A DNA stretch of 51,046 nucleotides, from the NCBI GenBank assembly GCA_050115555.1, contig JASFQI010000001.1, forward strand, positions 1-51,046, given 5' to 3'. Each line of letters begins with the position of its first letter. The first letter of the stretch is position 1. Both the position numbers and the translations under genes were made by a program. Of this stretch, positions 296 through 17,754 are shown one piece after another. The notes beneath the pieces were generated by a model. It saw only the letters and a program-made list of their open reading frames with translations. It did no database searches and was not told the origin of the DNA. This stretch comes from Desulfobacteraceae bacterium (lineage in GTDB: Bacteria; Desulfobacterota; DSM-4660; Desulfatiglandales; HGW-15).

Positions 296-1246
296 CTATC
301 CTTGGGCCGCCATAGAAGAATCCACTGCCCGGACCTCCGGGGGGGTCCCGTTCACGGAGATCCCGGCATGGTCCAGGATATCCGGCACGATGTCAGTCCA
401 GCCCAGAGGCATGATGTGCACACCCTGAACCATGGGTTTGATTTTCCGAATAAACGTTCCCATCATCTCGGCCGCCTTTTTCTTGCGATCGCCGCTCTCC
501 ACCGATCCGATCGCGTCGATCCACTCCTGGGGAACGCGGACTCCAGAGACGTTCTTGTTCATGAAACGCCCCATCTGGGGGGACTTGAGAACCACAACCC
601 CGACCTGGATCGGTCGGCCCATGCCCTCCGCCTTTTCCATGAAGGCCTCAAAGACCGCCTCGTCGTAAACCGCCTGGGTCTGGAAGAACTCGGCGCCTGC
701 ATCGATCTTCTTCCTCATCTTGAGCAGCTGCAGCTCCAGGGGGACGAAGTTGGGATTGACCACGGCGCCGTGGGCCATGTCCGGGGGGTTTTCTATAGGA
801 TTTCCCGTGATATCGTGGCCTTCACGCAAGCCCTGCGCCATGGCGATAAGCTGGACCGAATCCAGGTCAAATACCGGTTTGGCCGACTTGTGGTCCCCGA
901 GCTGAATGTGGTCGCCGGTGAGAAGAAGAACATTGTCGATTCCTAAGGAATAGGCGGTCAGCAGGTCGCTTTGCAGCGCAATTCGGTTGCGGTCCCGACA
1001 CGTCAGCTGATAGATGGGCTCGATCCCCCGCTGCTTCAGGCCGACGCTGGCGGCCAGGGACCCCAGCCGCATGACAGCGGATTGGTTATCGGTCACATTG
1101 ACCGCATGGACGTGATCCTGGAGATACCAGGCCTCTTTCGCACACGTCGGGTTGATGCGCCAGTCCCTCGAAATGGCTCCTTTGATGGGGCCGACCTCTC
1201 CGGTGACGACAAACTCGCCCCGGTTGAACAGATCCGTGATCTTCAT
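296..1246 (-). CDS. metF: Methylenetetrahydrofolate reductase (MetF, small anaerobe type)
   Basis: ORF 296-1297 trimmed to the ATG at 1246 (MKITDLFNRGEF), which is preceded by AGGAGA. The sequence is MTHFR-family throughout (VTDNQSAVMRLGSLAASVGLK..LTCRDRNRIALQSDLLTAYSLGIDNVLLLTGD). It lies next to metV. Confidence 0.9.
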   Translation of the reverse strand: MKITDLFNRGEFVVTGEVGPIKGAISRDWRINPTCAKEAWYLQDHVHAVNVTDNQSAVMRLGSLAASVGLKQRGIEPIYQLTCRDRNRIALQSDLLTAYSLGIDNVLLLTGDHIQLGDHKSAKPVFDLDSVQLIAMAQGLREGHDITGNPIENPPDMAHGAVVNPNFVPLELQLLKMRKKIDAGAEFFQTQAVYDEAVFEAFMEKAEGMGRPIQVGVVVLKSPQMGRFMNKNVSGVRVPQEWIDAIGSVESGDRKKKAAEMMGTFIRKIKPMVQGVHIMPLGWTDIVPDILDHAGISVNGTPPEVRAVDSSMAAQG

Positions 1247-1277
1247 TTTTCGTCTCCTGATTCCATGAAATGCATGT

Positions 1278-1466
1278 CTAGCCTTGTGCCCATCCAAAAA
1301 CCAAGCTCAGGGCACTAGCAAGTTTCCAATCCAGAAATGAGAAGTTTTCCGTAAGATCAAGGAAATCAAGGGATTCCGCGGAGATGTACATAAGGTGCTT
1401 CGCACAAGGAATACCGCAGATTGACGCCGAGATTGCGGAAAAGGGCCATTTCTGGATGGAAACTAG
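1278..1466 (-). repeat. MITE-like structured repeat, copy 1 (short form), in the metV-metF spacer
   Basis: The reverse complement aligns end to end with 46406-46667, apart from a ~75-nt insert in the latter. Imperfect ~30-nt inverted arms lie at 1321-1351 and 1436-1464 (agtttccaatccagaaatgagaagttttccg / cggaaaagggccatttctggatggaaact). A second small hairpin is gtgccc(1286-1291)/gggcac(1310-1315). CTAG tetranucleotides occur at 1278-1281, 1315-1318 and 1463-1466, and the last contains the metV TAG stop. Confidence 0.7.
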
Positions 1467-2182
1467 TCCTGATTGCTCACGGTCAATGGGCCGGCCTGCG
1501 AGCAGAAGGTCGCTTCAAACGGGCTCACCTTCAGGGTTCGTGGACGGCTCCACTTGGCGTGGTCTTTCGGCGATTGATAGGCATCCAGCAGGTCCAGGCG
1601 GCCCAGTTTTTTAAGCCGCTCGAAGATCAGCACCCAACCGCATGGACGATCTTTGTCCACCTCGCACATCCCGTCTTCCGCCCCGCCGCAAGGACCGTTC
1701 AGAAGTTGTTTCGAGCAAAGGGTCATGGGGCACAGCCCCCCGGTGAACTCGATAATGCAGTCTCCGCAAAGGGAGCAGTACTCCTGGATTTCCGATTCAG
1801 AAACCGTCTCCCCACCGAAAATGGTGTCACAGCCGGGATGCACCATGCCGCCGTCCGTGGCATCGATCACGGTGTGAACCCCCTGGCCGCACCCCAGCAC
1901 CAGGAAGGAATCGGCCTGCCGGACCTGCTCTGCATAATCTTCCATCAGGACCTTCCGGGTGTTGTCCAGCTTGCATAGCGACATTCCCTGAGAACCGGGC
2001 ACGGTGTACCCCGCCACCTCGATCCCCCTCCTTTCCAGGCGCTCCGCCATGGCCCGGGTTTCATCCTCCCCGCCGGAGTGGCATTTCCACGCGCAGTTGT
2101 TGCACCCAACAACAAAGACCTTTTCGCCATCCTGGATGTGACGGACGATTTCCTCGATTGGTTTTTGAATGGTAGCATGCAT
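1463..2182 (-). CDS. metV: MetV (MTHFR-associated zinc-finger/Fe-S subunit, MTHFR_C-type)
   Basis: ORF 1463-2251 trimmed to the ATG at 2182 (MHATIQKPIEE), preceded by GAGAGGA. Cys-rich sequence (GCNNCAWKCH, CSLCGDCII, CPMTLCSKQLLNGPCGG, CEVDKDRPCGW) typical of the MetF partner. Directly upstream of metF. Confidence 0.85.
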   Translation of the reverse strand: MHATIQKPIEEIVRHIQDGEKVFVVGCNNCAWKCHSGGEDETRAMAERLERRGIEVAGYTVPGSQGMSLCKLDNTRKVLMEDYAEQVRQADSFLVLGCGQGVHTVIDATDGGMVHPGCDTIFGGETVSESEIQEYCSLCGDCIIEFTGGLCPMTLCSKQLLNGPCGGAEDGMCEVDKDRPCGWVLIFERLKKLGRLDLLDAYQSPKDHAKWSRPRTLKVSPFEATFCSQAGPLTVSNQD

Positions 2183-2299
2183 TAGAATTCCTCTCAAATG
2201 TGATGGAGTCGCAAAAAACCTTGGACCAAACGATGACCCTTTGCACATCAAAAAACATCAGTGTAGCTCACAAAAGTCGAAGAGATTTTTACGATACCG

Positions 2300-3016
2300 T
2301 CAAAAAAATTGTTTATTGAAGCGGGTAAATGACACTTCAAGTCGGGCATATAGAGATCGAAGCCGTTCATTGGCCACAACGATTTTTTCGTTTTTCTGTT
2401 CATTCTCCTGATCTAATGGATAGCAGGAAAGGCACATTTCATAATTCTTGATTTGATTGTCATAATGAACAGCGAAATTGACCATGAGAAATACCATTTT
2501 CACTTCAAAATTAGGCAGTTGTTCTCTTGCATGAACCCATTGAAGCCAGGGTTCAATCGATATTCCACCCCTATCCTTGGCCAGAGCGATGGTATCCTCC
2601 ATCCTCATCGCGCCTTGGTCGAGTGCGCGATTTTCAATCTTTTTCGCATAGCTTTCCAATGTCAGCTTCGGTCTTTCCAGGAGGATCCCGGCGCGGCGAA
2701 GCTTCTCCAAATCTGATTTCATGTACTGATTGGCGGTCAGGATCGCCTTGTAGGTCGCAGGACAATGCCCGTCAGGGCACCCACGCGCATAGCATTTCCT
2801 GAATCCGTATTCCTCTCCATCGATGGTTCCACTGAAACGGCACAGAAACATCAGGGCCCTATAGGCCGGATCATCTTCCGTGAAGTACATGGGAATGACG
2901 TCGAACGTGGCGCGACAAAAGACGCGGGAGGACCGTAGCTTCCACTGCAGCAGGTCGCTGATGCGGCTCGGAGGGCGGATACCCGCGGTTTCACTCTTTC
3001 CCATTGAAGTCGCCAT
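2300..3016 (-). CDS. Uncharacterised Cys-rich protein, paralog 1 of a tandem pair
   Basis: 238-aa ORF. Shares RFSGxIDGxxxxFRKCYARGCPxxxCP and CLxCYP with the neighbouring ORF 3035-3754. I recognise no family. The gene is noticeably AT-rich (46/120 G+C by hand count over 2301-2420). Confidence 0.75.
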   Translation of the reverse strand: MATSMGKSETAGIRPPSRISDLLQWKLRSSRVFCRATFDVIPMYFTEDDPAYRALMFLCRFSGTIDGEEYGFRKCYARGCPDGHCPATYKAILTANQYMKSDLEKLRRAGILLERPKLTLESYAKKIENRALDQGAMRMEDTIALAKDRGGISIEPWLQWVHAREQLPNFEVKMVFLMVNFAVHYDNQIKNYEMCLSCYPLDQENEQKNEKIVVANERLRSLYARLEVSFTRFNKQFF

Positions 3017-3034
3017 AACGAGACCATCCTGACA

Positions 3035-3754
3035 TCAGGAGTGAAAAAAGGTCTTTTCATGCGGAATCGAAGCATGATCGAAGGCCTCGTAGACTCGTGC
3101 CAGCCGCGCATTTGCAATGTCGATTTTGTTCGATCGCTCTTCCCGTTCGTTTTCATGGGGATAACAGGCCAGGCATCGCTCCATGTGATGGGGTTTTCCG
3201 AGATGTGTGATCGAAAAGTCGGCCATCAGAAACATCTGCGCCTTCTGGTAGTTTGCAAAATGCTCAACCCCGGGGACAAACTCGAGTTTGACTTCAACGA
3301 TCCCAGCGTTTCCCTCTCGAGCGAGGTTGACGGCGTCGTCGATCGTCATCGTGGCTTCGTTGTCCTCATGAACGTCCTCGTACTTGACCATCATGTCTTC
3401 CAGGGTAAACAACCGCTTGTCGATATCGATTCCACTCTCTTCCAGGCGTCGATAATCCCGCTGGAGATAACGGTTGGCGATCATGACCGCCTGAGAGACA
3501 TGCGGACACAAATTGTTCGGGCAGCCGCGTGCATAGCATTTTCGAAACTCGAAATCCTGCCCGTCGATGTCCCCGGAGAACCGAACGAGGAAAATATGGG
3601 CCTGGAACGGATTTTTTCGATCCACAAAATCCACCGGAAGGATCTCGAATGCGACCCGGCAGTGCACCGTTGAACCGTCTTTTTTCAATGCGATCAAGTC
3701 GGTCACACGGCAGGGTGGAAATCCATTCATTTGCTGCTGCATGGCGAGCCTCAT
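3035..3754 (-). CDS. Uncharacterised Cys-rich protein, paralog 2 of a tandem pair
   Basis: 239-aa ORF lying 18 nt upstream of paralog 1. About one third of residues are identical along the whole length, with six conserved Cys. A GGTGAGGGGA-type SD precedes the ATG at 3754. Confidence 0.8.
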   Translation of the reverse strand: MRLAMQQQMNGFPPCRVTDLIALKKDGSTVHCRVAFEILPVDFVDRKNPFQAHIFLVRFSGDIDGQDFEFRKCYARGCPNNLCPHVSQAVMIANRYLQRDYRRLEESGIDIDKRLFTLEDMMVKYEDVHEDNEATMTIDDAVNLAREGNAGIVEVKLEFVPGVEHFANYQKAQMFLMADFSITHLGKPHHMERCLACYPHENEREERSNKIDIANARLARVYEAFDHASIPHEKTFFHS

Positions 3755-3771
3755 TTTCGTTATCCCCTCAC

Positions 3772-4146
3772 CTAAAACACAAACACGGCGTCGGATTCGA
3801 TCGCCTCCAGGTTCACGGAACCGGCCGCCGTCACCTCGGAACCTTCGATCAGCTCGGACTCCGGGAGATCGCGGCTCTTGATGCAGGGACCGCAGACCCA
3901 GATCTTTCCGCCTTCCTCGAGAAATGTGTGGAGGAGCTCCTTCATGGGAGGAAACCCTCCGCCCGGGGGCATGGTTTCAGCATACCCCTTTTTGGCGATG
4001 TACACCCCGTCCCCCTGGAGGACAATGGTGGCCTTTATGTCCATGGCAAGGGCCGCATTGGCAAGGGCGAACGGGATGTGGGCCATTTCCGATCTGTTCT
4101 CGCCACAGGTGCACATGTAAAGAATCTTGTCTTGCTTCTCCGTCAT
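3772..4146 (-). CDS. DsrE/TusD-family sulfur-relay-like protein
   Basis: ORF trimmed to the ATG at 4146 (MTEKQDKILYMCTCG), preceded by GGAGAAGGAGA. Shows the DsrE-like pattern (ATIVLQGDGVYIA .. KIWVCGPCIKSRD) at ~124 aa. Confidence 0.7.
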   Translation of the reverse strand: MTEKQDKILYMCTCGENRSEMAHIPFALANAALAMDIKATIVLQGDGVYIAKKGYAETMPPGGGFPPMKELLHTFLEEGGKIWVCGPCIKSRDLPESELIEGSEVTAAGSVNLEAIESDAVFVF

Positions 4147-4271
4147 CTTTCGTTCTCCTTCTCCTCTGGGTTCTAGATCATGAATCCTCATACAGTTCAG
4201 TTGAAATCGGGGTGATAAATACGCAAGTTACGTATCTTTATGAAACGGCTTGCGTTCTTTCACCCTCGCTT

Positions 4272-5201
4272 CTATTCCACCTGACGGGCAATCACGGTGG
4301 AAAGATCTTCCACGTCTGCCCCGGCCTTCCTGAGGTTGCCCAGGCAAATGGGACACATGGCCACGATGGGCGCATGGGCGCTCTCCAGGTCCTCGAGCCG
4401 GCGCCCTACGACCTCCTGGGACAGCCTGGGAGAGATGGACTCCGCCGGTCCTCCGCAGCAGTGGGTGTAGGCCCCGGAGTCGCGGACCGGCACACACTCA
4501 ATGTCCAGGCCGGAGAGGACCTGATAGGGGACGTCTGAGAGCTCCAGGTATCGCCCGTAGAAGCAGGGGTCGTGGAGGACGATCCTCCGGTGGCCGTTGT
4601 GCGATTGAAGGTCCAGCAGCTCGAAGTAGGCGTGGACCTCGAAGCTTTCCCCGGTGACCTTGGGGTAAAGCACCTTCAGGGCATAGGTGGTGTGGGGATC
4701 CACGGTGATGAGTTTGCGGACGCCTTTCTCCCTCAGTTTTGCTGCCACATATTTCGCCTGCTCGACGAACCCTTCCTGATCGCCCAGGTCGTAGAGCAGG
4801 ACACCGCTGTAATCATCCAGCTTCGGGTCGTAAAAGAAATCCACGCCGGAGCGGGTCAGGATCATCGCGATATTCTGTAAAATCCGGTTGAATTTTTCCT
4901 TCTCCTTCCCGGGTGTGATCGCGGCCAGGCCGAGCCCCGACACCCATTTGGGCACGTATTTTCCGTAGCCCATGTAGTCGGCCCACTTCGTGTCTTCGAA
5001 GCGCTCCAGATACGCAGTGGATTTCTCGATGTAGGGAATGAACTGATACATCAAACCGGTAAACAGGAGGGCATCCCCTTTTCTGCCTACCTCGGCCTTT
5101 TTCCACCAGCTGTTGACGGCGAACTTGGGAATCCCAAAAGGATTCTTGGTTTTTTTGACATTGTCGGCAATCAGATCGATGATCATCCTGGGATCATACA
5201 T
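4272..5201 (-). CDS. hdrB: HdrB-like CCG-domain protein (only one intact CCG motif)
   Basis: ATG at 5201 lies one nt after the hdrC-like stop and is preceded by GGAGGAGG. The C-terminal half carries C-X34-CC-X33-CxxC (DPCFYG..THCCGGP..MCPICLG). The N-terminal ~215 aa contain no Cys. Confidence 0.8.
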   Translation of the reverse strand: MYDPRMIIDLIADNVKKTKNPFGIPKFAVNSWWKKAEVGRKGDALLFTGLMYQFIPYIEKSTAYLERFEDTKWADYMGYGKYVPKWVSGLGLAAITPGKEKEKFNRILQNIAMILTRSGVDFFYDPKLDDYSGVLLYDLGDQEGFVEQAKYVAAKLREKGVRKLITVDPHTTYALKVLYPKVTGESFEVHAYFELLDLQSHNGHRRIVLHDPCFYGRYLELSDVPYQVLSGLDIECVPVRDSGAYTHCCGGPAESISPRLSQEVVGRRLEDLESAHAPIVAMCPICLGNLRKAGADVEDLSTVIARQVE

Positions 5202-5202
5202 G

Positions 5203-5505
5203 TCAGGACCTCCTCCAGTTCGAGACCACAAAGCGTTTCAATCCCAGGATCACTTCTCCGGGATTCGCCTCCCGCGGACAGGTCTGTGTGCAGAGACCGC
5301 AGTGAAGGCAACGCCAGAGCTCCCGGGCGTTGTCCAGGATGCGATCCCTGGCCCCGAGCTGGATGTAGCGGATCATCCGCCGTGGAAAATGCTCGTAGAT
5401 CAAGGGGCAGATCGCTGCGCAGGTCCCGCAGTTGAAGCACTCCAGCGCCGTACCGCTTCCGTAGCTTGCGATTTCTTCGGCAAAGTCCAGGTTCACTTGT
5501 GCCAT
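5203..5505 (-). CDS. hdrC: HdrC-like 2x[4Fe-4S] ferredoxin subunit
   Basis: Trimmed to the ATG at 5505 (MAQVNLDF), preceded by GGGAGGA. Two cluster motifs are present: CFNCGTCAAICP and CLHCGLCTQTCP. Confidence 0.8.
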   Translation of the reverse strand: MAQVNLDFAEEIASYGSGTALECFNCGTCAAICPLIYEHFPRRMIRYIQLGARDRILDNARELWRCLHCGLCTQTCPREANPGEVILGLKRFVVSNWRRS

Positions 5506-5569
5506 GTTTTTCCTCCCAGGAATGCGTCGGGTTCCCCGATGCCTCCCTTTCCTTTCGCACAGGTCGAAA

Positions 5570-5890
5570 TCAATCCGTCGCTTCCGCGGCCTTCTCTTCG
5601 GCCAGTTCATACATGAAGTATGCGCCGTCCTTTTCCGCTTCCCTGACCTCGCCGTATTTCTTCAGGGTCGCCACATACCAGAGGACCTCTGCGGTCTCGG
5701 CCCCGATGGCCGATGCGATCGCAGGAACGGTCTGCGGGCCGTTCTTCAGATGATCCCGAATGGCCCGGGTTTTCTTTTTCTGCTCCCGCATCCTGCTCGT
5801 GGCCTCTTCGATCCATGCCTTTCGGCTTTCACGAAGCGTTTTCAAGGCCTCTTTGTCGAAACCCACCTGCTTCCCTTGTTTCCGGCTCAT
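5570..5890 (-). CDS. Small basic protein with a winged-helix-like C-terminus (the 'hyp' of the hdr cluster)
   Basis: Trimmed to the ATG at 5890 (MSRKQGKQVGF), preceded by GAGGTG. The C-terminal TVPAIASAIGAETAEVLWYVATLKKYGEVRE looks like a wHTH. Family not recognised. Confidence 0.55.
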   Translation of the reverse strand: MSRKQGKQVGFDKEALKTLRESRKAWIEEATSRMREQKKKTRAIRDHLKNGPQTVPAIASAIGAETAEVLWYVATLKKYGEVREAEKDGAYFMYELAEEKAAEATD

Positions 5891-5951
5891 GCTTTCACCT
5901 CGTCCGTGCAGCGCGTTTCCGGCCCGTCCTCTCTTTCGGCGTTCCTCTCGA

Positions 5952-7862
5952 TCAAGCCGCCTCATCCGCGGCTACAATTCGATCCACCATGGCGTCATAC
6001 TGCTCGAGGGTCCAGCCGTTGATGTCAATAGCGTTTTCAGGACACACGGCAACGCAGGCCCCGCAACCGGTGCAGAGCGCCGGCGTGACCTCGGCACGGC
6101 GCACGGTCTTCCCTTCCACTTGTTCCTCCACCATTCTCAAGGCGCCGTCTACAAGGCAGGCCTCCACGCAAGCACCTGACCCCTTGCACCTCGCGGGGTC
6201 CACTTGGGCCACGAACGGGTCAAGCTCCACGTACCCCCGCCCGAGCAGGGCCGCTGCCTTGGCCGCGGCCGCGCCGGCCGCATTGCACACCTCCCCCACG
6301 TCCATCGGGGCCTGGCATGTCCCTGCCAGCAGCAGACCGGTCTGAGGCAGTTCCACGGGCCTGAGCTTCGGATGGACCTCGAGCAGAAACCGGTCCATGC
6401 CGACCGGCAGCTTCATCATCTCTACCAGCTCCGAAATGCCGGTCGGTTCCATTCCCGTTGCCAGGACAACCAGGTCCGCGGGTACCTCCACCTCTTCACC
6501 GAAGGTCAGCGTATCCCTGACCTTGACTCGCAGGGGATAGTCTTCGGATTCCTCGCCCTGCAGGACCTCGGGCGCATCCTCGGCCTCGAAGCGCAGGAAG
6601 ACGACGCCGCTTTTGGCTGTGTCGTTGTAAAGCTCCTCCTGCCCGCGGCCGTAGGTCCGGATGTCCCGGTAGAACTCGTAGACGTGGGTCCCGGGATGGG
6701 ATATTCGGATCCTGTGGGCCGCGTCCAGGCTGGCCGTGCAGCAGGTACGGGAGCAGTACTCGTTCAGGTGCCCGGTCTCGTCGTCCGGGTGAATGCCGGG
6801 AATCTGACGGCTCCCGACACAGTGGATCATGGCTATGCTCCGGATCTTCCGGCCGTTGACGATCAGGCAATCGCCGTCCGAGGCTTCGGCCAGGATCCGG
6901 ATCAGATCGCTCAGCGTGACCACCTCCGCGAACTCCCCGTATCCGTACTCTCCCCGGCGCGGCACGTAGGGCCGGAAGCCCGTGGCCAGCACCACCACGC
7001 CCGTCTCGAGGCTCAGGGTTTCAGCGGCTTCCGGGATCGGCTGGGGGCACACGCCTGAAAAAGGTACGTACGCGTTTCGGGCGCCGCTGCCGGGATCAAC
7101 CGGTTCCATGCCGATCCGGGGAGGTTCTGTTTTCAGGCCGAGCCTGAAGTTCCCCACATACCCCTCGAAGGACGCTACAGAGGAGCAGGTGTGAACCGTG
7201 ATGTTCGGATCCTCCAGGACTTCTCCGGCCAGCTCCTTCACCAGGTCCTCAGCCCGGTCTCCAGTGGGCGCCACTCGGTCCAATTCTGCCACCCGCCCTC
7301 CGAGAAACGGGGTCTTTTCGATCAGGGCCACTTCGATCCCGCGCCCGGCCAGGTCCTTTGCCGCCCGGAGACCTGCGATGCCACCCCCGATGACGGTCGC
7401 GTGGGGCCGGGCATCGACCCGGATCGGTTCCAGGGGTTCGAGTCTCTCGGCCTTGGCCGCGGCGGCCGCCACCAGCCGGGTGGCCTTGTTTGTGGCCTCC
7501 TCCCCGTGATGGACCCAGCTGACCTGCTCTCTGATGTTGGCATGGTCGTAGATATAGGGGTTTGCTCCGGCTCGTGCCAGGGCGCTTCGAAACGTGTTCT
7601 CATGGAGGCTGGGAGCGCAGGAGGCGACCACGATTCGGTTCACGGCACCGCTTTTCAGGTCCTCCATGATCATCTCCTGACCTGGGTCCGAGCACATGAA
7701 CATGTTGGTACGCGCCACGGAGACCCCAGGGAGGTGTTCCACCCGGTCCCGGACCGTCTCCACTTCCACGTGATCCGAGATGTTTCCGCCGCAGTAGCAG
7801 ATGTAGACGCCCACCTTTGCCTGCGTGGGTTCAGCGTTTTTGTTCTTTTTCTCTTCGGTCAT
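5952..7862 (-). CDS. hdrA: HdrA-type flavoprotein with an N-terminal MvhD-like domain and C-terminal 2x[4Fe-4S] domain
   Basis: ATG at 7862 (MTEEKKNK), preceded by AGGAGA. The N-terminus (VYICYCGGNISDHV..MFMCSDPG..VVASCAPS) resembles MvhD/FlpD. It is followed by VIGGGIAGLRAAKDLA (FAD binding), HCVGSR..EYCSRTCC (the HdrA signature), and CKGSGACVEAC plus CTGCGACVAVCP at the C-terminus. Confidence 0.9.
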   Translation of the reverse strand: MTEEKKNKNAEPTQAKVGVYICYCGGNISDHVEVETVRDRVEHLPGVSVARTNMFMCSDPGQEMIMEDLKSGAVNRIVVASCAPSLHENTFRSALARAGANPYIYDHANIREQVSWVHHGEEATNKATRLVAAAAAKAERLEPLEPIRVDARPHATVIGGGIAGLRAAKDLAGRGIEVALIEKTPFLGGRVAELDRVAPTGDRAEDLVKELAGEVLEDPNITVHTCSSVASFEGYVGNFRLGLKTEPPRIGMEPVDPGSGARNAYVPFSGVCPQPIPEAAETLSLETGVVVLATGFRPYVPRRGEYGYGEFAEVVTLSDLIRILAEASDGDCLIVNGRKIRSIAMIHCVGSRQIPGIHPDDETGHLNEYCSRTCCTASLDAAHRIRISHPGTHVYEFYRDIRTYGRGQEELYNDTAKSGVVFLRFEAEDAPEVLQGEESEDYPLRVKVRDTLTFGEEVEVPADLVVLATGMEPTGISELVEMMKLPVGMDRFLLEVHPKLRPVELPQTGLLLAGTCQAPMDVGEVCNAAGAAAAKAAALLGRGYVELDPFVAQVDPARCKGSGACVEACLVDGALRMVEEQVEGKTVRRAEVTPALCTGCGACVAVCPENAIDINGWTLEQYDAMVDRIVAADEAA

Positions 7863-7907
7863 TCCGGATTCTCCTGCCAACGGGTTCCGCAATCCCACGG
7901 GAGGGGT

Positions 7908-9245
7908 TCAGGCTTGAACGGCCCGAGCCGCCTCTCTCTCCTTGTCGAGACCGTTCGTGCAATCCAGGCGCGCAAGGTACTTGGCCGCCTCCACGGACGC
8001 CGCACCGGACTCGGCGATGGTGTCCACGATGTCCTTGGGGCCGGCCGCCGTTCCCGCGACGAAAACCCCTTCCATATCGGTTCGCGTCGGGGAAAGTTTG
8101 GGCTGTATCGTTCGAATAAACCGGTCCGGCCCTGAGGAGACCTCGCAGATCCCTTCGGGGTTCCAGGCCGGAACCATCCCCAGGGACAGCACCACCAGGT
8201 CGTGATCCGCCGTAGACACCCCTTCACCGTTCTGATCCTCGTAGCGAAGGGTGACAGACCCGTTTTCCCCTTCATGGATAGAAGCGACCTTGCCCTTGAC
8301 GAACTCGATGCCCATGGCCTTGGCATTCTGGTAGAACTGCTCGTACCCTTTTCCAAAAGCGCGGATGTCCATGTAGTAAATGGTAATGTCCGCCAGGGGC
8401 AGCGAGCCGGAGATGAGCATGGCCTGCTTGATAGCATACATGCAGCAGACTCTGGAGCAGTAGGAGACCCCCATGCTCTTGTCCCGCGATCCGGCGCACT
8501 GGACATAGGCGATGGAATCCGGCTCCATGCCGTCCGACGGCCTGAGGACGCGGTTGTAAGGGCCGTGAGGGGCCAGGAGCCTCTCCATCTGCATGGACGT
8601 GATCACATTGGGGATACGGCCGTTACCGTACTGCTGCTTGGTTTCTATCGGCGTCAGCTCGAAGCCGGTGGCCAGGACCGCTGTTTTTGCCCGAATGAGA
8701 ACCTCCTCCGGCTTTTGAAAGTAATCCACGGCATGGGTGGGGCAGACCGTGGCGCACTTTCCACACAGCATGCAGTTTTCCGCATCCAGCACGGCGATCT
8801 GAGGGATGGCGTTGGAAAAGGGAATGGAAATGGCCTTGGTCGCAGAAAAGCCTCCCTGCTCCTCATCGGGCACGTAGACCGGGCAGGCGTACTCGCACTG
8901 CCTGCATCCGATACACTTGTCTGGATCGACATACCGCGGACGTTGCGTCACTGACGCGATAACCCGGTCTTCGCGGCGGTCGAGGGACGTCACGTCACAA
9001 TTGGTAAACAGGTTGATCTTCTCGTGATGGGCCGCAGCCGCCATCTTTGGCGTCGTGATGCAGCTGGCACAGTCGAGGGTCGGAAAGACCTTGGACAGGC
9101 GGATCATTTTTCCACCAATGGATGCATCCCGTTCCACAACCGCCACATGGAACCCCTGATCTGCCAGATCCAGGGCCGACTGGAGGCCTGCAATCCCACC
9201 GCCAACCACCAACGCGTCAAACTCGAGCTTTCGTATGGAGTCCAT
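7908..9245 (-). CDS. Second HdrA-family flavoprotein (core type with inserted ferredoxin domain)
   Basis: VVGGGIAGLQSALDLA, LDCASCITTPK, CIGCRQCEYACP, CMLCGKCATVCP, CAGSRD..YCSRVCC. 445 aa. Confidence 0.9.
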   Translation of the reverse strand: MDSIRKLEFDALVVGGGIAGLQSALDLADQGFHVAVVERDASIGGKMIRLSKVFPTLDCASCITTPKMAAAAHHEKINLFTNCDVTSLDRREDRVIASVTQRPRYVDPDKCIGCRQCEYACPVYVPDEEQGGFSATKAISIPFSNAIPQIAVLDAENCMLCGKCATVCPTHAVDYFQKPEEVLIRAKTAVLATGFELTPIETKQQYGNGRIPNVITSMQMERLLAPHGPYNRVLRPSDGMEPDSIAYVQCAGSRDKSMGVSYCSRVCCMYAIKQAMLISGSLPLADITIYYMDIRAFGKGYEQFYQNAKAMGIEFVKGKVASIHEGENGSVTLRYEDQNGEGVSTADHDLVVLSLGMVPAWNPEGICEVSSGPDRFIRTIQPKLSPTRTDMEGVFVAGTAAGPKDIVDTIAESGAASVEAAKYLARLDCTNGLDKEREAARAVQA

Positions 9246-9427
9246 GTCTTCCTCTCTTCCTCAATGCCCTTCCCGTTCAACCCTTTTCCCGCGGACGGCC
9301 AGGCCTGGTCGTCCTTGTCACCCGATTCGCGGCGCATCCCCTCGAAGCAATGCACGGGATTTTCTTCACCCTTCCAAGGGTGGTGGGTGCAGCACCGGGT
9401 GAGGGCGTGTCAAAAGAACGGAGACCT

Positions 9428-9853
9428 TCAGTTCCGGGAAACCTCCGGCGGTCCCAGCTCCTGAACCAGCTCGTTCATCTGGTTCACCTCATTCAAGAAT
9501 GCGCGGTTGCATACCGTGCATATGGCGGTCAGCCGCAGCCTGCGAATGTCCAGGTCGTGCTCCTTCATAAGCTTGTAGACTCGGTCTATCCGTTTGGCGA
9601 GAGCCTTGTAGGCTCCGTCATACGGGCATTCTTCCCCGCAGGACATGACGATCATGCCGCTGATTCCCTTCTTGAAACAGTCCAGGTAGAACCGTTCCGG
9701 AAAGAGGACCGGAGCCCGCACCCGAAGAATGTAGGTGTTCGTGGGGTAGGTCGAATGCGCCTGCCCCACAGAGTCCGCACCGGGATAGGCACAGCTTTCG
9801 GTAGACAGAATCAGTATTTTCCCTTTATCAAGGCCTGATTGAGTGCTTTCCAT
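9428..9853 (-). CDS. mvhD: MvhD/FlpD-type (methyl-viologen-reducing hydrogenase delta subunit-like) protein
   Basis: 141 aa. ILILSTESCAYPGADS .. GMIVMSCGEECPYDGAYK .. AICTVCN is typical of MvhD, the usual electron-transfer partner of HdrA. Confidence 0.85.
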   Translation of the reverse strand: MESTQSGLDKGKILILSTESCAYPGADSVGQAHSTYPTNTYILRVRAPVLFPERFYLDCFKKGISGMIVMSCGEECPYDGAYKALAKRIDRVYKLMKEHDLDIRRLRLTAICTVCNRAFLNEVNQMNELVQELGPPEVSRN

Positions 9854-9864
9854 GGTGCTTCCAC

Positions 9865-10377
9865 CTACTTCTTTCTCCTGACAAAGTGTTTGTCGTATCC
9901 ATCGGCTTCCAGGGCACCCAGGTACTCGTGTCCGACCTTGTTGGCCCAGGCCGGAATGTCCCTTCGAGTTCCGGAGTCATTGGAGTAGACCTCCAGGACT
10001 TCACCCACTTTGACTTTTCCGATGCCTTTTTTGGCCTCCAAAAGCGGCCCCGGGCAGGCACTGCCTCGGGCATCCACGGTACTTGCAGTTTGAACAGTAC
10101 TCAGATCTTCGGGCATTTTTTTCTCCTCTGTACGTGTGAAAGGTTCTTGTTTGCTCTTCTTCAACTGCATTCGATATCCATCTTCTTCGTTTCCAATCTT
10201 TTCGATGATCAGGACTTCATAAGTCCCCTTAGGAAGGACTTTTAATAAGTCCTCGTGCATGTCTGGATCGATCCATTCAACTTCGATGGTTTCTCCAAGC
10301 GCCATCTCTTTGAAGATATTGCTGATACGCAAGAGAGAAAACGGGATGATGGTGTGTCTCAAGTCGAAAGAATGCAT
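9865..10377 (-). CDS. Tandem TusA/SirA-like protein (N-terminal domain degenerate, C-terminal domain has the CPxP Cys)
   Basis: The C-terminal half (DARGSACPGPLLEAKKGIGKVKVGEVLEVYSNDSGTRRDIPAWANKVGHEY) is a canonical TusA. The N-terminal half has the same fold pattern without the Cys. The start is uncertain: ATG at 10377 or TTG at 10389. Confidence 0.7.
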   Translation of the reverse strand: MHSFDLRHTIIPFSLLRISNIFKEMALGETIEVEWIDPDMHEDLLKVLPKGTYEVLIIEKIGNEEDGYRMQLKKSKQEPFTRTEEKKMPEDLSTVQTASTVDARGSACPGPLLEAKKGIGKVKVGEVLEVYSNDSGTRRDIPAWANKVGHEYLGALEADGYDKHFVRRKK

Positions 10378-10437
10378 AGATAGTCTCAAAACTGCTTGGA
10401 AAGAGTTGAATGAGCGATTCCACGGCTTCCCCCTTGA

Positions 10438-10452
10438 GCAAATAGAGTGCCA
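10438..10452 (-). promoter_or_regulatory. Sigma-54 (-24/-12) promoter of the hdr/metVF locus
   Basis: The reverse strand reads cTTGGCACtctatTTGCTc, matching the YTGGCACG-N4-TTGCW consensus with correct spacing. It lies ~60 nt upstream of the first gene and next to a divergent sigma-54 activator gene. Confidence 0.75.
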
Positions 10453-10680
10453 AGCCTTGTCTTCGGAATCGGGATGCCCGCGGGCAAGAAGACCAAAATC
10501 TTATCAACTTGCTGAAAAAGTGGAATATTTTTGGAGACGAGAATGTGCCCGTTGGCCTTGTTTTTGGATATTTCCGTGGTATGGAGGTCGATTTCTAGGT
10601 CCGGAGGCTTGCCAAGAGCCTGTTTAGATGTTAAGAACATGAACGCTTTGTTTGTTCACTTGTTAAACAGGAGCGTTCAC

Positions 10681-12090
10681 ATGCGCGATACAGACTATGA
10701 ACTGAGGCATCATCTGAACCACTACTGGAAAACCGTAGTCGATACCATCCAGGACGGCGTGATGATCGTGAACACGGACGGGACCATTGTCTCTGCCAAC
10801 CGAGGGTTTGAGGAGATTACCGGGTACTCCCACGAGGAGCTCATCGGCCAGCCGTGTGCCTTGCTGTCCTGCTCCACATGCGAGTTCGCCCTGGAGGCGG
10901 AAGGCAGCTTCTGTATCCTGTTTCAACAGGGGACCCTGCGCCAGCAGCGGTGCGAACTGCGCCAAAAGAACGGCGACATGGTACATGTCGTAAAGAACGC
11001 CTCGGTCCTCAAGGATCAGAACGGCAAGGTCATCGGGGCGGTGGAAACCGTGACGGATGTGACCGACCTGATTGACAAGGAAAGGCAGATCGAGACCTAC
11101 CGGCGGGAGCTGGACCAGAAGGACCGGTTCCACGGGATGATCGGGACCTCCGCGAGGATGCAGCAGGTCTTCTACCTGATTGCCAATGCGGCCAAGTCCG
11201 ATGCCCCGGTGATCGTCCACGGTGAAAGCGGCACTGGAAAGGAACTGGTGGCCAAGGCCATCCACGAGTCCAGCCACCGAAAGGAAAAACCCTTCATCAA
11301 GGTCAACTGCGCAGCCCTCAATGAATCGCTCCTGGAAAGCGAGCTCTTCGGTCACGTGAAAGGGGCCTACACTGGGGCTCACCGGGACCGGGAAGGTCGT
11401 TTCGAGGCGGCCGAAGGCGGGAACATCTTCCTGGACGAGATCGGGGACCTGCCCCTGGCCACGCAGGTCAAGCTTTTGAGAGTCCTGGAGGAGAAAGTCA
11501 TCGAGCGGGTGGGGGATCATCAGCCTGTCCACGTGGATGTGCGGATCATTTCCGCCACCAACCGGGACCTTCCAAAGTTGATCGATACGGGGGCGTTCAG
11601 GGAGGACTTTTTTTACCGGATCAATGTCATTCCCATCTGGGTTCCGCCATTACGGGAGCGGGCCGAGGATATCCCTTTGCTGGCCATGTCATTTTTTCGC
11701 TTGATTCGGCTTCAAAGCGGCAAGGACATCGAGGGCGTTTCCAGGGAGGCCATGGATGCGCTGGTGAAGTACCCCTGGCCCGGCAATGTCCGGGAACTGA
11801 GGAGCGCCTTTGAGTTCGCCTTTGTCTCCTGCCAGGATCGAATGATCGGGATCGAGCACCTGCCCCACCCGATTGCCCGGAACACCACGGAGCCCCCTCC
11901 TTCGGAGAGCGCTCCGGCCGGCATCGAAGAGCTGAAGAAGGAGCGCCTGCTCAAGGCCCTGGAGGCCTCCGGGGGCAACCAGTCCAAGGCGGCCCGGATC
12001 CTTGGCATCTCCCGTACCAGTGTCTGGAGCCAGATGAAGCGGTTTCACATCAAAGCGCCCCACGCCGGATCGAAAATGTCTTTTCCTTGA
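10681..12090 (+). CDS. Sigma-54-dependent transcriptional activator (PAS - AAA+ - Fis-type HTH)
   Basis: ORF trimmed to the ATG at 10681, preceded by AGGAG. Motifs: PAS ([34 protein letters not shown]), Walker A (GESGTGKE), a GAFTGA variant (GAYTGA), [10 protein letters not shown], and a C-terminal [19 protein letters not shown]. Confidence 0.9.
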
Positions 12091-12247: not shown

Positions 12248-13978
12248 CTACTCCTTGAGGTTCAGGGTCTCTCCAACCGGAAGTCCGAGCTCCTGCGCGC
12301 GGAGCACTCTGCGCAGGATCTTTCCGCTTCGGGTCTTGGGGATCCGGTCGATGAAGGCGATCTCGCGGACCACGATGTCCGGGGAGAGATTGGCCCGAAG
12401 AAAGGCTCGGATCTCCTGGTGTAACCGGGTCGAAGGGGAGGCGCCGGGATGAAGGGTGATAAAGGCCTTGACCGAGGATCTACCCGAGCCCGGATCGCCG
12501 CCCTTGGAGATCACCGCGGCCTCGGCCACGGCCGGGTGCATGTAGAGGACGTGCTCGATCTCGTAAGGGCCGATCATCTTGATGCCCCCCACCTTGATCA
12601 GGTCGTCGTTTCGGCCCTGGTGGTAAAAGTACCCCTCGTCGTCCATCAAGGCCATGTCCCCCGTGAGGAACCAGCCCGGAACGCGGAAGTACTGCTCGTA
12701 TCGCTCTTCATCGCCCCACAGGGCGCTCATGAGCCCGGGCCACTCCAGCTTCAGGGCGAGCTCGCCCATGGTGAGAGGAGGTGCGGGCTCTCCCTCCTCG
12801 TCCAGGATTTCCGCCTTCATCCCGGGCACGGGCTTGCCCATGGAGCCGGGTTTGACATCCATGGATGGGAAGTTGGCCAGGCAGATGATGCCGGTTTCGG
12901 TCATCCACCACGTATCGTGCAGGGTGTGCCGAAGGTGCTTTCGGGCCCAGTAAAAGAGGTCCGGGACCAGGGGCTCGCCCACAGTGGCCACGTGCCGCAG
13001 GGATGAGAGGTCGTATCGTCCGGCCAGGTCCTCGCCGGCCTCCACAAGGTGCCGGATGGTGGTGGGCGTGGTGTACCAGACCGAAACCCGATGCTTTTCA
13101 AGGGTTCGATACACGTTGGAGGCGGAGAAGGGATCCCCCTGGACAAGGGTAGTGGCCCCGCAGAGCCAGGGGGCAAAAACTCCATATACCGTGCCCGTAA
13201 CCCAGGCCGGCTGGGCTTCGGTCCAGAGGAGGGTATCCGGGGTCAGGTCGAGCACGAACCGGGCCGTGGCATAAATGCCTACCATGTCCAGATGAGTGTG
13301 CACAATGGCTTTCGGGGTCCCTGTGGAGCCCGATGTGAAGTTCAGATAAAGAGGAGCCCTACGAGGAAAAAGACGATTCGAGAAGGTATCGGCCATTCCG
13401 TCGATTTCTTCCTGGATCAATACCTCACCCTGCCCCGTGCCCGGAGGTGGACCGTTCACGAGGAAGACGCGACGGACGCTCTCCATGCCGTCCAGGGGTA
13501 GCTGCTCTGCAAGATCGGGGTGAGTGAGAACCCCGGCAGGCTTGGCAGTTTGAAGCCGGACCTCGAGTTCGTCGTACGTACTGCTGGAGAAGACATTGCA
13601 GAACACCATGCCCAGCCGCGCGCAGGCCAGCATGGCCAGGTAGGTTTCCGGGCAGGGAGGGAGAAAGATGAAGAACCGCTCCCCGGAACGCATGCCGTGG
13701 TGACGGAGGAGGTTCGCCCAGCGGCAGGAGGCGGCTTTGAACTCCGCGTAAGTGAACGTTCGAACCTCGCCGTCCTTTTCGAAGATCAGGGCCGGCCGGT
13801 CGCGCTCAGCTGCACTCGATGCCCAACGGTCCACGGACGCCGTGACAATGTTGATCCGTGAGGCCTCGGGGCCCAGGAGCGCTTGTTCCTCCTCGGCCCA
13901 CGAGAACCTCTTCCGGGTGGATTCGTACTCCCCGAGGTTCGCGCCGGGATTCTCTGCCTTGACTCTTGCCTTGATCAT
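12248..13978 (-). CDS. AMP-forming acyl-CoA synthetase (Acs/PrpE-like paralog)
   Basis: Trimmed to the ATG at 13978 (MIKARVKAEN). Motifs: YLNFTSGSTGTPKAIVHTH, WWMTETG, GRNDDLIKVGG, and a C-terminal [12 protein letters not shown] carrying the conserved acetylatable Lys motif. Confidence 0.85.
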   Translation of the reverse strand: MIKARVKAENPGANLGEYESTRKRFSWAEEEQALLGPEASRINIVTASVDRWASSAAERDRPALIFEKDGEVRTFTYAEFKAASCRWANLLRHHGMRSGERFFIFLPPCPETYLAMLACARLGMVFCNVFSSSTYDELEVRLQTAKPAGVLTHPDLAEQLPLDGMESVRRVFLVNGPPPGTGQGEVLIQEEIDGMADTFSNRLFPRRAPLYLNFTSGSTGTPKAIVHTHLDMVGIYATARFVLDLTPDTLLWTEAQPAWVTGTVYGVFAPWLCGATTLVQGDPFSASNVYRTLEKHRVSVWYTTPTTIRHLVEAGEDLAGRYDLSSLRHVATVGEPLVPDLFYWARKHLRHTLHDTWWMTETGIICLANFPSMDVKPGSMGKPVPGMKAEILDEEGEPAPPLTMGELALKLEWPGLMSALWGDEERYEQYFRVPGWFLTGDMALMDDEGYFYHQGRNDDLIKVGGIKMIGPYEIEHVLYMHPAVAEAAVISKGGDPGSGRSSVKAFITLHPGASPSTRLHQEIRAFLRANLSPDIVVREIAFIDRIPKTRSGKILRRVLRAQELGLPVGETLNLKE

Positions 13979-14003
13979 GAAATGTCGGCTCCTCCCAGCC
14001 TTT

Positions 14004-15053: not shown

Positions 15054-15078
15054 GGGTCGCCTTTCGGGGGTCAGATTT

Positions 15079-15149
15079 TCTCGCCAAGACGCCAAGGCGC
15101 AAAGAAAAAATGAAATGCTTTTTGCTCTTCTTCGCGATCTTTGGCGAGA
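15079..15149. repeat. Imperfect ~70-nt palindromic repeat ('ctcgccaagacgc' family)
   Basis: Arm 15079-15109 (tctcgccaagacgccaaggcgcaaagaaaaa) and arm 15119-15149 (tttttgctcttcttcgcgatctttggcgaga) are imperfect inverted copies. A related half-site lies at 17726-17750. Confidence 0.5.
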
Positions 15150-15166
15150 GGAACGTCTTTTGTGTT

Positions 15167-15649: not shown

Positions 15650-15665
15650 GGCTCCCAAATCCCGG

Positions 15666-17621: not shown

Positions 17622-17725
17622 GCCTCGTTCCTCCTTTTTGCCGCAGGCGGTTTATTCATGGAATAACCGAATGGCTTTGTTGTATTGTTTCGTAAGCACA
17701 AACAATAGGATATTCTATTGTGTAT

Positions 17726-17750: not shown

Positions 17751-17754
17751 ATCA

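Follow-up and report, generated by a model that had tools for sequence, protein, structure and literature searches.

The window, which is the whole stretch of 51,046 bases analysed here, contains twelve minus-strand genes between positions 10377 and 296, fronted by a promoter element and a divergently encoded activator. These genes had been delineated in an earlier note; all of the open reading frames are present, and profile-HMM searches (Pfam, NCBIfam) found the claimed family signatures in ten of them. In transcriptional order they encode a tandem TusA, MvhD, two HdrA proteins (HdrA-short and HdrA-long), a small winged-helix protein, HdrC, HdrB, DsrE, two Cys-rich paralogs (X1 and X2), MetV and MetF. 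The description of most intergenic gaps as shorter than 60 nt is only roughly true, since start codons chosen for consistency with orthologs put about 125 nt between HdrB and DsrE and give 61-64 nt for two further gaps. The recurrence of the TusA, DsrE and paralog genes beside hdr in relatives, which the note had posed as a refutation test, was assessed in 80 species-level Desulfobacterales loci. The order activator, TusA-MvhD-HdrA-short-HdrA-long-winged helix-HdrC-HdrB-DsrE-X is kept in 69 of them, and Desulfosarcina variabilis is among the species with the conserved locus. This is an uncharacterised sigma-54-controlled operon common to marine sulfate-reducing Desulfobacterales. No description of the gene combination was found in the searchable literature, in agreement with the note, which could not assign it to a described system.

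The sigma-54 -24/-12 element TTGGCAC-N5-TTGCT, read in the sequence of the minus strand at 10453-10437, is the sole exact match to TGGCAC-N5-TTGCW in the window, where 0.06 would be expected, and 39 of the 40 orthologous intergenic regions have a counterpart of it. The activator is encoded on the plus strand at 10531..12090, with its true start probably near 10639-10681, and combines a PAS domain (PAS_9, 5.2e-18), an AAA+ sigma-54 activator domain (Sigma54_activat, 1.4e-72) and a Fis-type HTH (HTH_8, 3.9e-12; all Pfam). Both features were found as previously proposed. Nearly all loci whose upstream region is included have the activator facing away from the operon, and 46 orthologs share five invariant cysteine residues within its PAS domain.

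HdrA-long (5952..7862; 636-648 aa) matches HdrA of the methanogen structure 5ODC with an E-value of 1.6e-122. The 648-aa protein had been read as an MvhD::HdrA fusion, but it has no Pfam FlpD match, its N terminus has no BLASTP match to the window's own MvhD, and its residues 14-243 align to residues 3-234 of 5ODC HdrA as an ordinary HdrA N-terminal domain. It also aligns with the later part of 5ODC HdrA and consists of N-terminal [4Fe-4S], FAD and C-terminal ferredoxin domains without the inserted ferredoxin domain. Two NCBIfam-matched stretches jump over the region of the insertion, and BLASTP against HdrA-short shows the two-cluster segment to be missing from HdrA-long. HdrA-short (7908..9245; 445 aa; 5ODC HdrA, 5.9e-111) is limited to the FAD domain plus the inserted ferredoxin domain with its two [4Fe-4S] clusters, aligning to residues 146-567 of 5ODC HdrA, and each of its 16 conserved cysteine residues is kept in all or almost all of 52 orthologs. 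Because HdrA-short holds exactly what HdrA-long is missing, the two appear to complement each other as a heterodimer; the extra HdrA proposed earlier thus exists, but apparently as half of such a pair and not as a duplicate. HdrA2 is the best NCBIfam model for both proteins, and both reach 1e-111 to 1e-122 against 5ODC but only 1e-29 to 1e-35 against sHdrA 6TJR.

The HdrB-like catalytic subunit (4272..5201; 309 aa) has a single C-terminal CCG motif. Its Pfam CCG match (1.5e-6) covers residues 218-301 only, the conserved cysteine residues are Cys-213, Cys-248, Cys-249, Cys-283 and Cys-286, with Cys-236 at 88%, and the N-terminal half has no conserved cysteine in the ortholog alignment. A search against the PDB gave one weak match only, 9ojn. 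The HdrC-like two-[4Fe-4S] ferredoxin subunit (5203..5505; 100 aa; Pfam Fer4_8/Fer4_17) is matched in NCBIfam by the QmoC N terminus (1.9e-21) and by HdrC (3.5e-13) and retains eight cysteine residues in two 4Fe-4S motifs, and the MvhD-type [2Fe-2S] electron-transfer subunit (9428..9853; 141 aa; Pfam FlpD, 7.5e-20) has six conserved cysteine residues. The small Cys-free protein (5570..5890; 106 aa), which separates HdrA-long from HdrC in 58 loci, has no family match in Pfam or NCBIfam. Its AF2 model (pLDDT 84.8) shows a winged-helix domain preceded by a long helix at the N terminus; for this model Foldseek returned ArsR/SmtB and Z-alpha winged helices with probability 1.00 and an rmsd of ~1.5 A over ~58 residues, at marginal E-values (2e-3). 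On this model, the protein may bind DNA as a regulator instead of belonging to the complex.

The tandem TusA (9865..10377; two stretches matching Pfam TusA, 6.1e-25) consists of a Cys-less N-terminal copy and a catalytic C-terminal copy (CPGP), which matches 1PAV (7.5e-19) and holds Cys-108, the only conserved cysteine of the protein. In other loci the two copies are encoded by separate genes. For the DsrE-family sulfur-carrier protein (3772..4146; 124 aa; Pfam DsrE, 8.7e-19) the nearest solved structure is 3MC3, and in 64 orthologs Cys-85 is invariant and Cys-88 is 97% conserved. TusA and DsrE could also serve cofactor or cluster maturation and not substrate delivery. X1 (3035..3754; 235-239 aa) and its divergent paralog X2 (2300..3016; 238 aa; 35% identity) have no Pfam or NCBIfam match, the Pfam result being empty even at E<=5. 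X1 adjoins DsrE/Hdr in 69 of the 80 loci and has >1000 homologs, none of them named. Its invariant cysteine residues Cys-73, Cys-78, Cys-83, Cys-194 and Cys-197 are all retained in X2. An AF2 model (pLDDT 82.7, pTM 0.81) and hhalign (internal duplication, E 2.7e-6) describe X1 as two beta3-alpha repeats, and the model has no fold match in the PDB at E<=1e-3. Since there is no recognisable fold or family, and distant relatives lack the cysteine residues and stand in unrelated gene contexts, any role given to X is a guess. In loci L048 and L055, X and TusA stand beside a different Hdr set, without the core of the present locus.

The cluster ends with metV (1463..2182), encoding the 239-aa Cys-rich small subunit of a MetVF-type methylenetetrahydrofolate reductase (MTHFR; Pfam DUF5981, 4.7e-32; fourteen cysteine residues invariant in 22 orthologs), and metF (296..1246), encoding the 316-aa catalytic subunit (Pfam MTHFR, 7.8e-30; NCBIfam PRK08645, MTHFR half, 1.3e-64). 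The MetF product is identical to MGD8385490.1, a record annotated as MTHFR, and metF orthologs come after metV in related loci. The metV-metF spacer is indeed filled by a repeat, a MITE-like dispersed element (1286..1466) with an inverted, 89-91% identical copy at ~46404-46640 and ~20-nt terminal inverted repeats; it has no part in operon function. A weak terminator-like hairpin between X2 and metV (2239-2223) is not above chance, and the gaps of 117 nt and 216 nt are wide enough for metVF to be transcribed separately.

The earlier note had treated metVF as part of one combined locus. Yet metVF follows X in only 21 of the 62 loci with visible downstream sequence, which rules against a MetVF enzyme that has acquired sulfur genes. 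As metVF is optional across loci, the unit is a Hdr-sulfur-relay module that sometimes recruits MetVF; MetVF is an accessory to the operon, carried by about one-third of the species, including the source bacterium. Loci without metVF instead contain DrsE_2, a second DsrE, a CoADR-like pyridine-nucleotide-disulfide reductase, a peroxiredoxin or a thioredoxin-reductase-like protein (called by sequence inspection only), and these substitutes point to thiol/persulfide chemistry. Universal stress proteins are also among the genes in the metVF place, and at some loci the core is paired with a second complete Hdr set, stress genes being absent. No electron-donor module is encoded in loci without metVF, which counts against the interpretation given next.

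We favour, at about even odds, an Hdr-type oxidoreductase that works on sulfane sulfur bound to proteins and has a lineage-specific redox partner in MetVF. Gene order and motifs are the basis for the substrate and for every subunit contact proposed here. The product would be a cytoplasmic, Desulfobacterales-specific Hdr-type iron-sulfur flavoprotein complex whose substrate is most likely protein-carried sulfur, a persulfide or trisulfide, rather than a soluble heterodisulfide. The HdrA heterodimer would rebuild one complete methanogen-type HdrA electron path. Each partner would contribute an FAD domain; the inserted ferredoxin domain would come from HdrA-short, and the N-terminal cluster domain together with the C-terminal ferredoxin domain from HdrA-long. 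MvhD would supply electrons to, or withdraw them from, the HdrA pair, and HdrC would connect the pair with HdrB, where sulfane sulfur on TusA and DsrE would be reduced at a single noncubane [4Fe-4S] site. The five-Cys protein X may be an additional metal- or sulfur-binding partner. In the species that carry it, MetVF would dock as a redox module, linking methyl-THF oxidation or methylene-THF reduction (E0' ~-200 mV) via MvhD/HdrA to ferredoxin and the sulfur substrate. That methyl-/methylene-THF might be coupled to a persulfide on a protein, as put forward earlier, is a reasonable hypothesis; by thermodynamic reasoning, a typical persulfide would lie far below the potential that the acceptor must have if a -200 mV donor is to bifurcate electrons to ferredoxin. 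The divergent activator would turn on expression, its PAS domain probably sensing the redox state or sulfane sulfur.

The architecture HdrA-HdrC-HdrB-MvhD is shared with methanogen HdrABC-MvhAGD (5ODC) and Methanosarcina acetivorans HdrA2B2C2 (PMC5296606), to which both HdrAs are closest. Unlike in those enzymes, the HdrA domains are spread over two polypeptides, there is no hydrogenase or F420 module, and HdrB lacks the second noncubane cluster, which binds the other half of CoM-S-S-CoB. The proposed role of HdrB parallels that of DsrK (DsrMKJOP), TmcB and HmcF, which have one CCG motif each, and thus one noncubane [4Fe-4S] cluster, and act on carrier-bound sulfur in the form of the DsrC trisulfide (PMC10861901). 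However, those proteins belong to complexes in the membrane that receive electrons from quinol or cytochromes, whereas the present module appears to be soluble and to connect with HdrA and MvhD, and its extra conserved cysteine lies in a different sequence context.

A reductase of the same chemistry might serve defence against sulfide/persulfide or oxidative stress and not energy metabolism, being driven by ferredoxin to regenerate thiols or remove sulfane sulfur, induced through a Cys-based sigma-54 sensor, and using MetVF opportunistically to supply or take up electrons. The invariant PAS cysteine residues, the peroxiredoxin, universal stress and other thiol-related genes that replace metVF elsewhere, and predicted expression from a sigma-54 promoter, inducible and not constitutive, all fit this role. 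The HdrA pair and MvhD would nevertheless be costly machinery for detoxification, and some loci carry the second Hdr set instead of stress genes; we regard a defence function as unlikely.

The type III MTHFR that Moorella thermoacetica and Sporomusa possess is MetFV-HdrABC-MvhD, to which PMC10553843 and PMC9430772 both refer; the former reads HdrABC beside metF in Seep-SRB1g as a putative MetF-HdrABC, with sulfur-relay genes unmentioned. The present operon might encode an ordinary enzyme of this type, serving the Wood-Ljungdahl pathway in a sulfate reducer of the complete-oxidising kind, with TusA, DsrE, X and the winged-helix protein as co-transcribed, non-catalytic helpers, for example in cluster assembly or regulation. 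Both have metF, metV, hdrA, hdrB, hdrC and mvhD in a single co-directional cluster, soluble Fe-S/flavin subunits and flavin-based electron bifurcation as the proposed chemistry, and the pathway is common in Desulfobacterales (PMC2702500). However, the present locus has two complementary partial HdrAs in place of one, a one-CCG HdrB and sigma-54 control with a PAS activator, and it adds the tandem TusA, DsrE, winged-helix protein and X paralogs. The TusA, DsrE and X genes are present throughout, also in the roughly two-thirds of orthologous loci where metVF is dispensed with, and neither in the window nor in L003 is the locus flanked by further Wood-Ljungdahl genes. An ordinary type III enzyme is thus an unlikely account.

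Sulfate-reducer HdrBC-like modules are generally held to act on DsrC (PMC10553843), and DsrC trisulfide is reduced by one-CCG enzymes, so the operon might encode a soluble DsrC-trisulfide or -disulfide reductase analogous to FlxABCD-HdrABC, for which TusA and DsrE only load or unload a DsrC encoded elsewhere. This is quite improbable: the invariant partner is X, not DsrC, and tblastn with ORF clustering, which was not a dedicated dsrC search, revealed no DsrC-like cluster among recurrent neighbours in the 80 loci. Reversed sHdr-like oxidation of TusA/DsrE-bound sulfane sulfur to sulfite is highly improbable and disfavoured. The hallmarks invoked in the earlier note, namely associated TusA and DsrE-family sulfur transferases as in sHdr types I and II and a small gene separating hdrA from hdrC-hdrB as in shdrA-H-C2-B2 (PMC11094781), are a superficial likeness. 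Protein-bound sulfane sulfur is the expected substrate in both cases, but the host here is a sulfate reducer whose operon lacks the shdrC1B1 pair, LbpA and lipoate-maturation genes, includes an MvhD that is outside sHdr clusters as defined there, and encodes methanogen-type HdrAs with extra cluster domains in place of a 350-aa sHdrA.

The operon is neither an sHdr system nor a plain Moorella-type MetFV-HdrABC-MvhD, and the placement of MetVF beside Hdr and sulfur carriers suggests that sulfur and one-carbon metabolism are connected in a way not yet studied.

ORF listing, translation and scans against Pfam and NCBIfam identified twelve co-directional genes on the minus strand between 10377 and 296, in the order tusA-mvhD-hdrA-hdrA-wH-hdrC-hdrB-dsrE-X1-X2-metV-metF, in agreement with an earlier note on this DNA apart from a fusion label for the second HdrA. 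The first gene encodes a tandem TusA with two TusA stretches in the Pfam scan, and the second an MvhD of the FlpD family. These are followed by two HdrA proteins, HdrA-short (445 aa, 7908-9245) and HdrA-long (636-648 aa, 5952-7862), a 106-aa protein without a family match (wH, 5570-5890), an HdrC-like ferredoxin with two clusters, and a 309-aa HdrB-like protein with one CCG domain. A DsrE-family protein lies between the HdrB-like protein and the Cys-rich X1 (3035-3754), whose paralog X2 (2300-3016) is 35% identical to it; both have 238-239 aa and no family match. MetV (DUF5981) and MetF (MTHFR) complete the operon. Exact-sequence look-up retrieved HdrA-short as MGD8385499.1, X1 as MGD8385493.1 ('hypothetical protein', PVG49_00025) and MetF as MGD8385490.1. 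The CPxP cysteine of TusA is retained in the C-terminal copy only, and Cys-85 and Cys-88 of DsrE are retained across orthologs; among solved structures, 1PAV is nearest to TusA and 3MC3 to DsrE.

The first part of HdrA-long had been read as an MvhD domain fused to HdrA. HdrA-long has no Pfam match to FlpD, BLASTP with the window's own MvhD found nothing in the N-terminus, and residues 14-243 align with residues 3-234 of HdrA in the methanogen HdrABC-MvhAGD structure (PDB ID: 5ODC), which is the canonical N-terminal domain. The fusion label was therefore dropped. Over the whole protein, HdrA-long matches 5ODC HdrA with an E-value of 1.6e-122 and the sHdrA structure (PDB ID: 6TJR) with 1e-29, and HdrA-short matches residues 146-567 of 5ODC HdrA with 5.9e-111 and 6TJR with 1e-35. 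By the domain boundaries reported for 5ODC HdrA by Wagner et al. 2017, the stretch covered by HdrA-short is the FAD domain with the inserted two-[4Fe-4S] ferredoxin domain, and residues 3-234, covered by HdrA-long, the N-terminal cluster domain with the start of the FAD domain. HdrA-long comprises the N-terminal, FAD and C-terminal ferredoxin domains without the inserted ferredoxin segment. Its two NCBIfam matched stretches skip the inserted-ferredoxin region, and in a direct BLASTP of the pair the two CxxCxxCxxxCP motifs of HdrA-short face a Cys-free segment of HdrA-long. The four domains of methanogen HdrA (N-terminal, FAD, inserted-ferredoxin and C-terminal-ferredoxin) are all present, split over two polypeptides, and all HdrA cluster ligands are conserved among 52-55 orthologs of each protein. 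From this complementary architecture we infer that HdrA-short and HdrA-long would form a heterodimer rebuilding one complete HdrA electron path.

The HdrB-like protein differs from methanogen HdrB, which has two CCG motifs for two noncubane clusters, in retaining the C-terminal motif only. In this motif region Cys-213, Cys-248, Cys-249, Cys-283 and Cys-286 are conserved and Cys-236 is found in 88% of the sequences, and the ortholog comparison showed no conserved cysteine in the N-terminal half. The protein is too divergent from methanogen HdrB to be matched in a sequence search of the PDB. Other catalytic subunits with a single CCG motif are DsrK, TmcB and HmcF, whose substrate is the protein-bound DsrC trisulfide (PMC10861901).

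Occurrence of the operon in other genomes was assessed by a scan with the profile of protein X, applied to one GTDB genome per species. The scan matched 173 species, and the best 80 loci are almost all from Desulfobacterales MAGs, with the addition of Desulfosarcina variabilis Montpellier (NZ_CP159846.1, about 4,852,855-4,873,526) and of a Desulfococcaceae isolate. A tblastn comparison with thirteen window proteins revealed a shared order with the activator gene divergent from TusA(x2)-MvhD-HdrA-short-HdrA-long-wH-HdrC-HdrB-DsrE-X. The Hdr/DsrE block lies directly upstream of X in 69 of 80 loci (77 scan loci and three fetched earlier, three duplicates being excluded), the exceptions being mostly truncated contigs, and independent gene calls on two contigs confirmed the order. 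The proposed synteny of TusA, DsrE and the Cys-rich paralogs with hdr is thus recurrent. The same does not hold for metVF, which had been regarded as part of the same merged unit: metV follows X in only 21 of the 62 loci whose downstream sequence extends for at least 1.2 kb. In a tree of HdrA-short the metVF loci fall mostly into one large clade, interspersed with loci lacking metVF. MetVF is an accessory component and, since the core recurs while metVF varies, the invariant association is that of Hdr, TusA, (DsrE) and X.

Elsewhere, what comes after X varies: DrsE_2, another DsrE, a CoADR-like pyridine-nucleotide-disulfide reductase, a PocR-domain protein, a thioredoxin-reductase-like protein (recognised solely by inspecting its sequence), a peroxiredoxin or a second, different Hdr set. 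The peroxiredoxin ORF is split, probably by a selenocysteine codon. Downstream of X in the orthologous loci L015, L033, L035, L045 and L080, ORFs of 84 and 152 aa together represent one AhpC/TSA peroxiredoxin; the split falls directly behind FYPGDFTFV, a place compatible with an in-frame UGA for selenocysteine at the peroxidatic position. Two loci, L048 and L055, lack the first core, and in them the second Hdr set is preceded by the activator, TusA and X. The variable neighbours point to thiol/persulfide chemistry.

The metV-metF spacer of 216 nt, in which a repeat element had been noticed, is occupied by a MITE-like element about 180 nt long (1286-1466) with terminal inverted repeats of about 20 nt, the spacer copy beginning on the metV stop codon. 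A second, inverted copy with a 77-nt internal insertion is intergenic at about 46404-46640. The spacer repeat is a mobile-element insertion and no functional part of the operon.

Protein X was searched for relatives at the level of sequence and structure. X1 has more than 1000 homologs in a collection of 5.8 billion proteins, all unnamed and without Pfam domains. The family is narrow, since an exhaustive search of 1.84 billion representatives with the X profile returned only 115 clusters at 50% identity. Five cysteine residues are invariant, namely Cys-73, Cys-78 and Cys-83 in KCYARGCPxxLCP and Cys-194 and Cys-197 in CLACY. The AlphaFold model of X1 (pLDDT 82.7, pTM 0.81) displays two beta3-alpha repeats, and hhalign detected the internal duplication with an E-value of 2.7e-6. 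A C-x4-C-x4-C-x-H pattern suggested a SWIM-like zinc finger, but Pfam gave no match even at E<=5. Likewise, no known domain was recovered by NCBIfam or by a Foldseek search of the X1 model against the PDB at E<=1e-3. Distant relatives did not supply a function, as their contexts (after aroE, near toxin-antitoxin genes or HU) are unrelated to Hdr.

The distant relatives among the 115 clusters include Cys-less single-repeat proteins of 110-125 aa. Three loci with such relatives are L084 (7560-8345), L085 (8001-8360) and L086 (8001-8372), where they lie downstream of a shikimate dehydrogenase gene (one as a tandem pair) or near HU, without Hdr context. Since these relatives lack both the cysteines and the Hdr context, the Cys set was apparently gained in the Hdr-linked subfamily alone, and the X fold appears to be that of an uncharacterised small-protein family which underwent duplication and fusion and acquired cysteines in the Hdr-linked lineage. 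The copy number of X is variable: most loci have one copy, the window has two, and the loci L014, L020, L023 and L027 have three in tandem (X1-like, X2-like, X1-like). The small protein wH has no Pfam family. Its model consists of a long helix followed by a winged helix and matches ArsR/SmtB and Z-alpha folds with probability 1.00 and an rmsd of about 1.5 Å, yet with marginal E-values; the predicted fold is in line with the earlier wHTH-like description.

A TTGGCAC-N5-TTGCT element is located at 10453-10437 (TGGCAC-N5-TTGCT from 10452), about 60 nt upstream of the TusA start, with the GG and GC dinucleotides of the -24 and -12 positions of a sigma-54-dependent operon. The window has no other exact TGGCAC-N5-TTGCW site, with 0.06 expected by chance, and a -24/-12 element is found in 39 of 40 orthologous intergenic regions. 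The divergent plus-strand gene (10531-12090) encodes a PAS/sigma-54 AAA+/Fis-HTH protein with Pfam matches to Sigma54_activat (1.4e-72) and HTH_8 (3.9e-12), so that a sigma-54 interaction AAA+ domain and a DNA-binding HTH are both encoded next to the operon, and a GAFTGA-type loop can be read in the translation as GAYTGA. The predicted sigma-54 wiring, promoter and activator alike, is supported by site search and Pfam. Counts of internal terminators and sigma-70 promoters that could split the operon were not above shuffled expectation.

Five cysteine residues of the activator PAS domain (Cys-109, Cys-114, Cys-117, Cys-128 and Cys-141, residues 109-141) are invariant in 46 orthologs, which suggests an Fe-S, metal or persulfide sensor. 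They sit in the region of the PAS fold that holds the cofactors of FixL and LOV domains. A TTAACA-N2-TGTTAA palindrome with at most two mismatches recurs in 24 of 40 orthologous promoter regions, against a shuffled mean of 1.35. It lies 150-290 nt upstream of the -24 element, for example in the loci L005, L012, L037 and L069, and is a candidate enhancer site for the activator. The window itself has no match to it, and other palindromes are present at that position (TGAAC-N9-GTTCA near 10637-10655).

The larger ORFs scanned outside the operon include housekeeping genes and none for the Wood-Ljungdahl pathway or of dsr type, and the window as a whole has neither tRNAs nor Rfam matches at gathering score. 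The region 12248-19638 carries three paralogous genes for AMP-binding acyl/acetyl-CoA synthetases next to a histone-deacetylase-family gene (14004-15209) and to a fusion of acetyl-CoA hydrolase/transferase with GNAT (17755-19638). It resembles a unit that controls acyl-CoA synthetases through lysine acetylation, and the direct repeats D1 and D2 are the synthetase paralogs themselves. Two large ORFs without a Pfam match, 37362-38612 (416 aa) and 39437-41599 (720 aa), adjoin a MoxR AAA+ ATPase (41775-42803) and a DUF58 protein (42800-44014).

The best-supported reading, which draws on the observed gene content, conserved order, cofactor motifs, complementary HdrA architecture and regulatory elements, is that the operon would encode a soluble Hdr complex acting on carrier-bound sulfane sulfur; the subunit contacts, the substrate and the direction of electron flow are those we infer. 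The single-cluster HdrB site would handle sulfane sulfur on carrier proteins, and MvhD together with the HdrA heterodimer would link it to ferredoxin, as well as to MetVF at loci that have it. Thermodynamically, bifurcation to ferredoxin from methyl-THF (-200 mV) is not obviously favoured when a persulfide serves as the high-potential acceptor. The rivals considered were a plain type III MTHFR, a DsrC reductase, an sHdr-like oxidiser and a stress or defence role. As in MetFV-HdrABC-MvhD, the type III MTHFR, metF and metV are clustered with hdrC, hdrB, hdrA and mvhD. However, that enzyme is a hexaheteromer with one HdrA and an obligate MetFV, whereas this locus has two complementary HdrAs, four extra conserved families (TusA, DsrE, X and wH) and MetVF at a minority of loci. 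On its gene content the locus is partly like MetFV-HdrABC-MvhD and falls outside it by composition and by the dispensability of MetFV. The sHdr systems of types I and II, one of two themes that the locus had been said to merge, are defined by the syntenic genes shdrC1B1AHC2B2, or shdrC1B1AHB3 with etfAB, and by LbpA (PMC11094781). This locus has no HdrC/HdrB pair upstream of hdrA and no etfAB, no LbpA-like protein was seen among the twelve operon genes or the scanned larger ORFs of the window, and in contrast to the short sHdrA flavoprotein both HdrAs are far nearer to 5ODC than to 6TJR. The likeness to sHdr is limited to the sulfur-transferase neighbours and the position of the small gene, and an sHdr assignment is disfavoured.

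A full-text search of the available literature library found no paper with HdrA, MetF, DsrE and TusA together. Murali et al. 2023 (PMC10553843) noted that HdrABC adjoins metF in Seep-SRB1g and predicted MetF-HdrABC, with TusA, DsrE and X unmentioned, and the genome papers of Desulfobacterium autotrophicum and Desulfococcus multivorans contain many hdrA/mvhD loci, not this operon. Beyond the general HdrABC-metF remark for Seep-SRB1g no published description was found, in keeping with the earlier difficulty of placing the locus in any described system. The operon is a widespread and conserved variant of Hdr-based redox complexes that has so far not been described, and it includes a new protein family, X, and a sigma-54 sensor with a Cys-rich PAS domain. 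As its modules are of known types, it is not a categorically new system. That it represents a class of Hdr-based electron-bifurcating or confurcating enzyme not recognised before is unlikely. If true, such a class would be a missing energetic link from C1 oxidation to sulfur reduction and would hint at the kind of second substrate used by MetFV-HdrABC-MvhD-type enzymes.

In marine sediments, Desulfobacterales of the Desulfosarcina/Desulfococcus group are the dominant agents of sulfate reduction and of the complete oxidation of carbon, and to our knowledge their cytoplasmic electron-transfer network is so far largely unassigned. The full version of the operon is present in the culturable Desulfosarcina variabilis, so that the hypothesis is directly testable. 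Of relevance to anaerobic bioenergetics, the operon, which occurs in no fewer than 173 species-level genomes, joins methanogen bifurcation machinery, sulfur-carrier proteins and a wholly uncharacterised protein family. The metVF-attached loci bear on how the oxidation of methyl-THF (about -200 mV) is coupled in sulfate reducers and on the partner substrate of MetFV-HdrABC-MvhD enzymes. If the HdrB site acts on carrier-bound sulfur, the complex would be a soluble counterpart to DsrMKJOP and a new sulfane-sulfur route in sulfate reducers.
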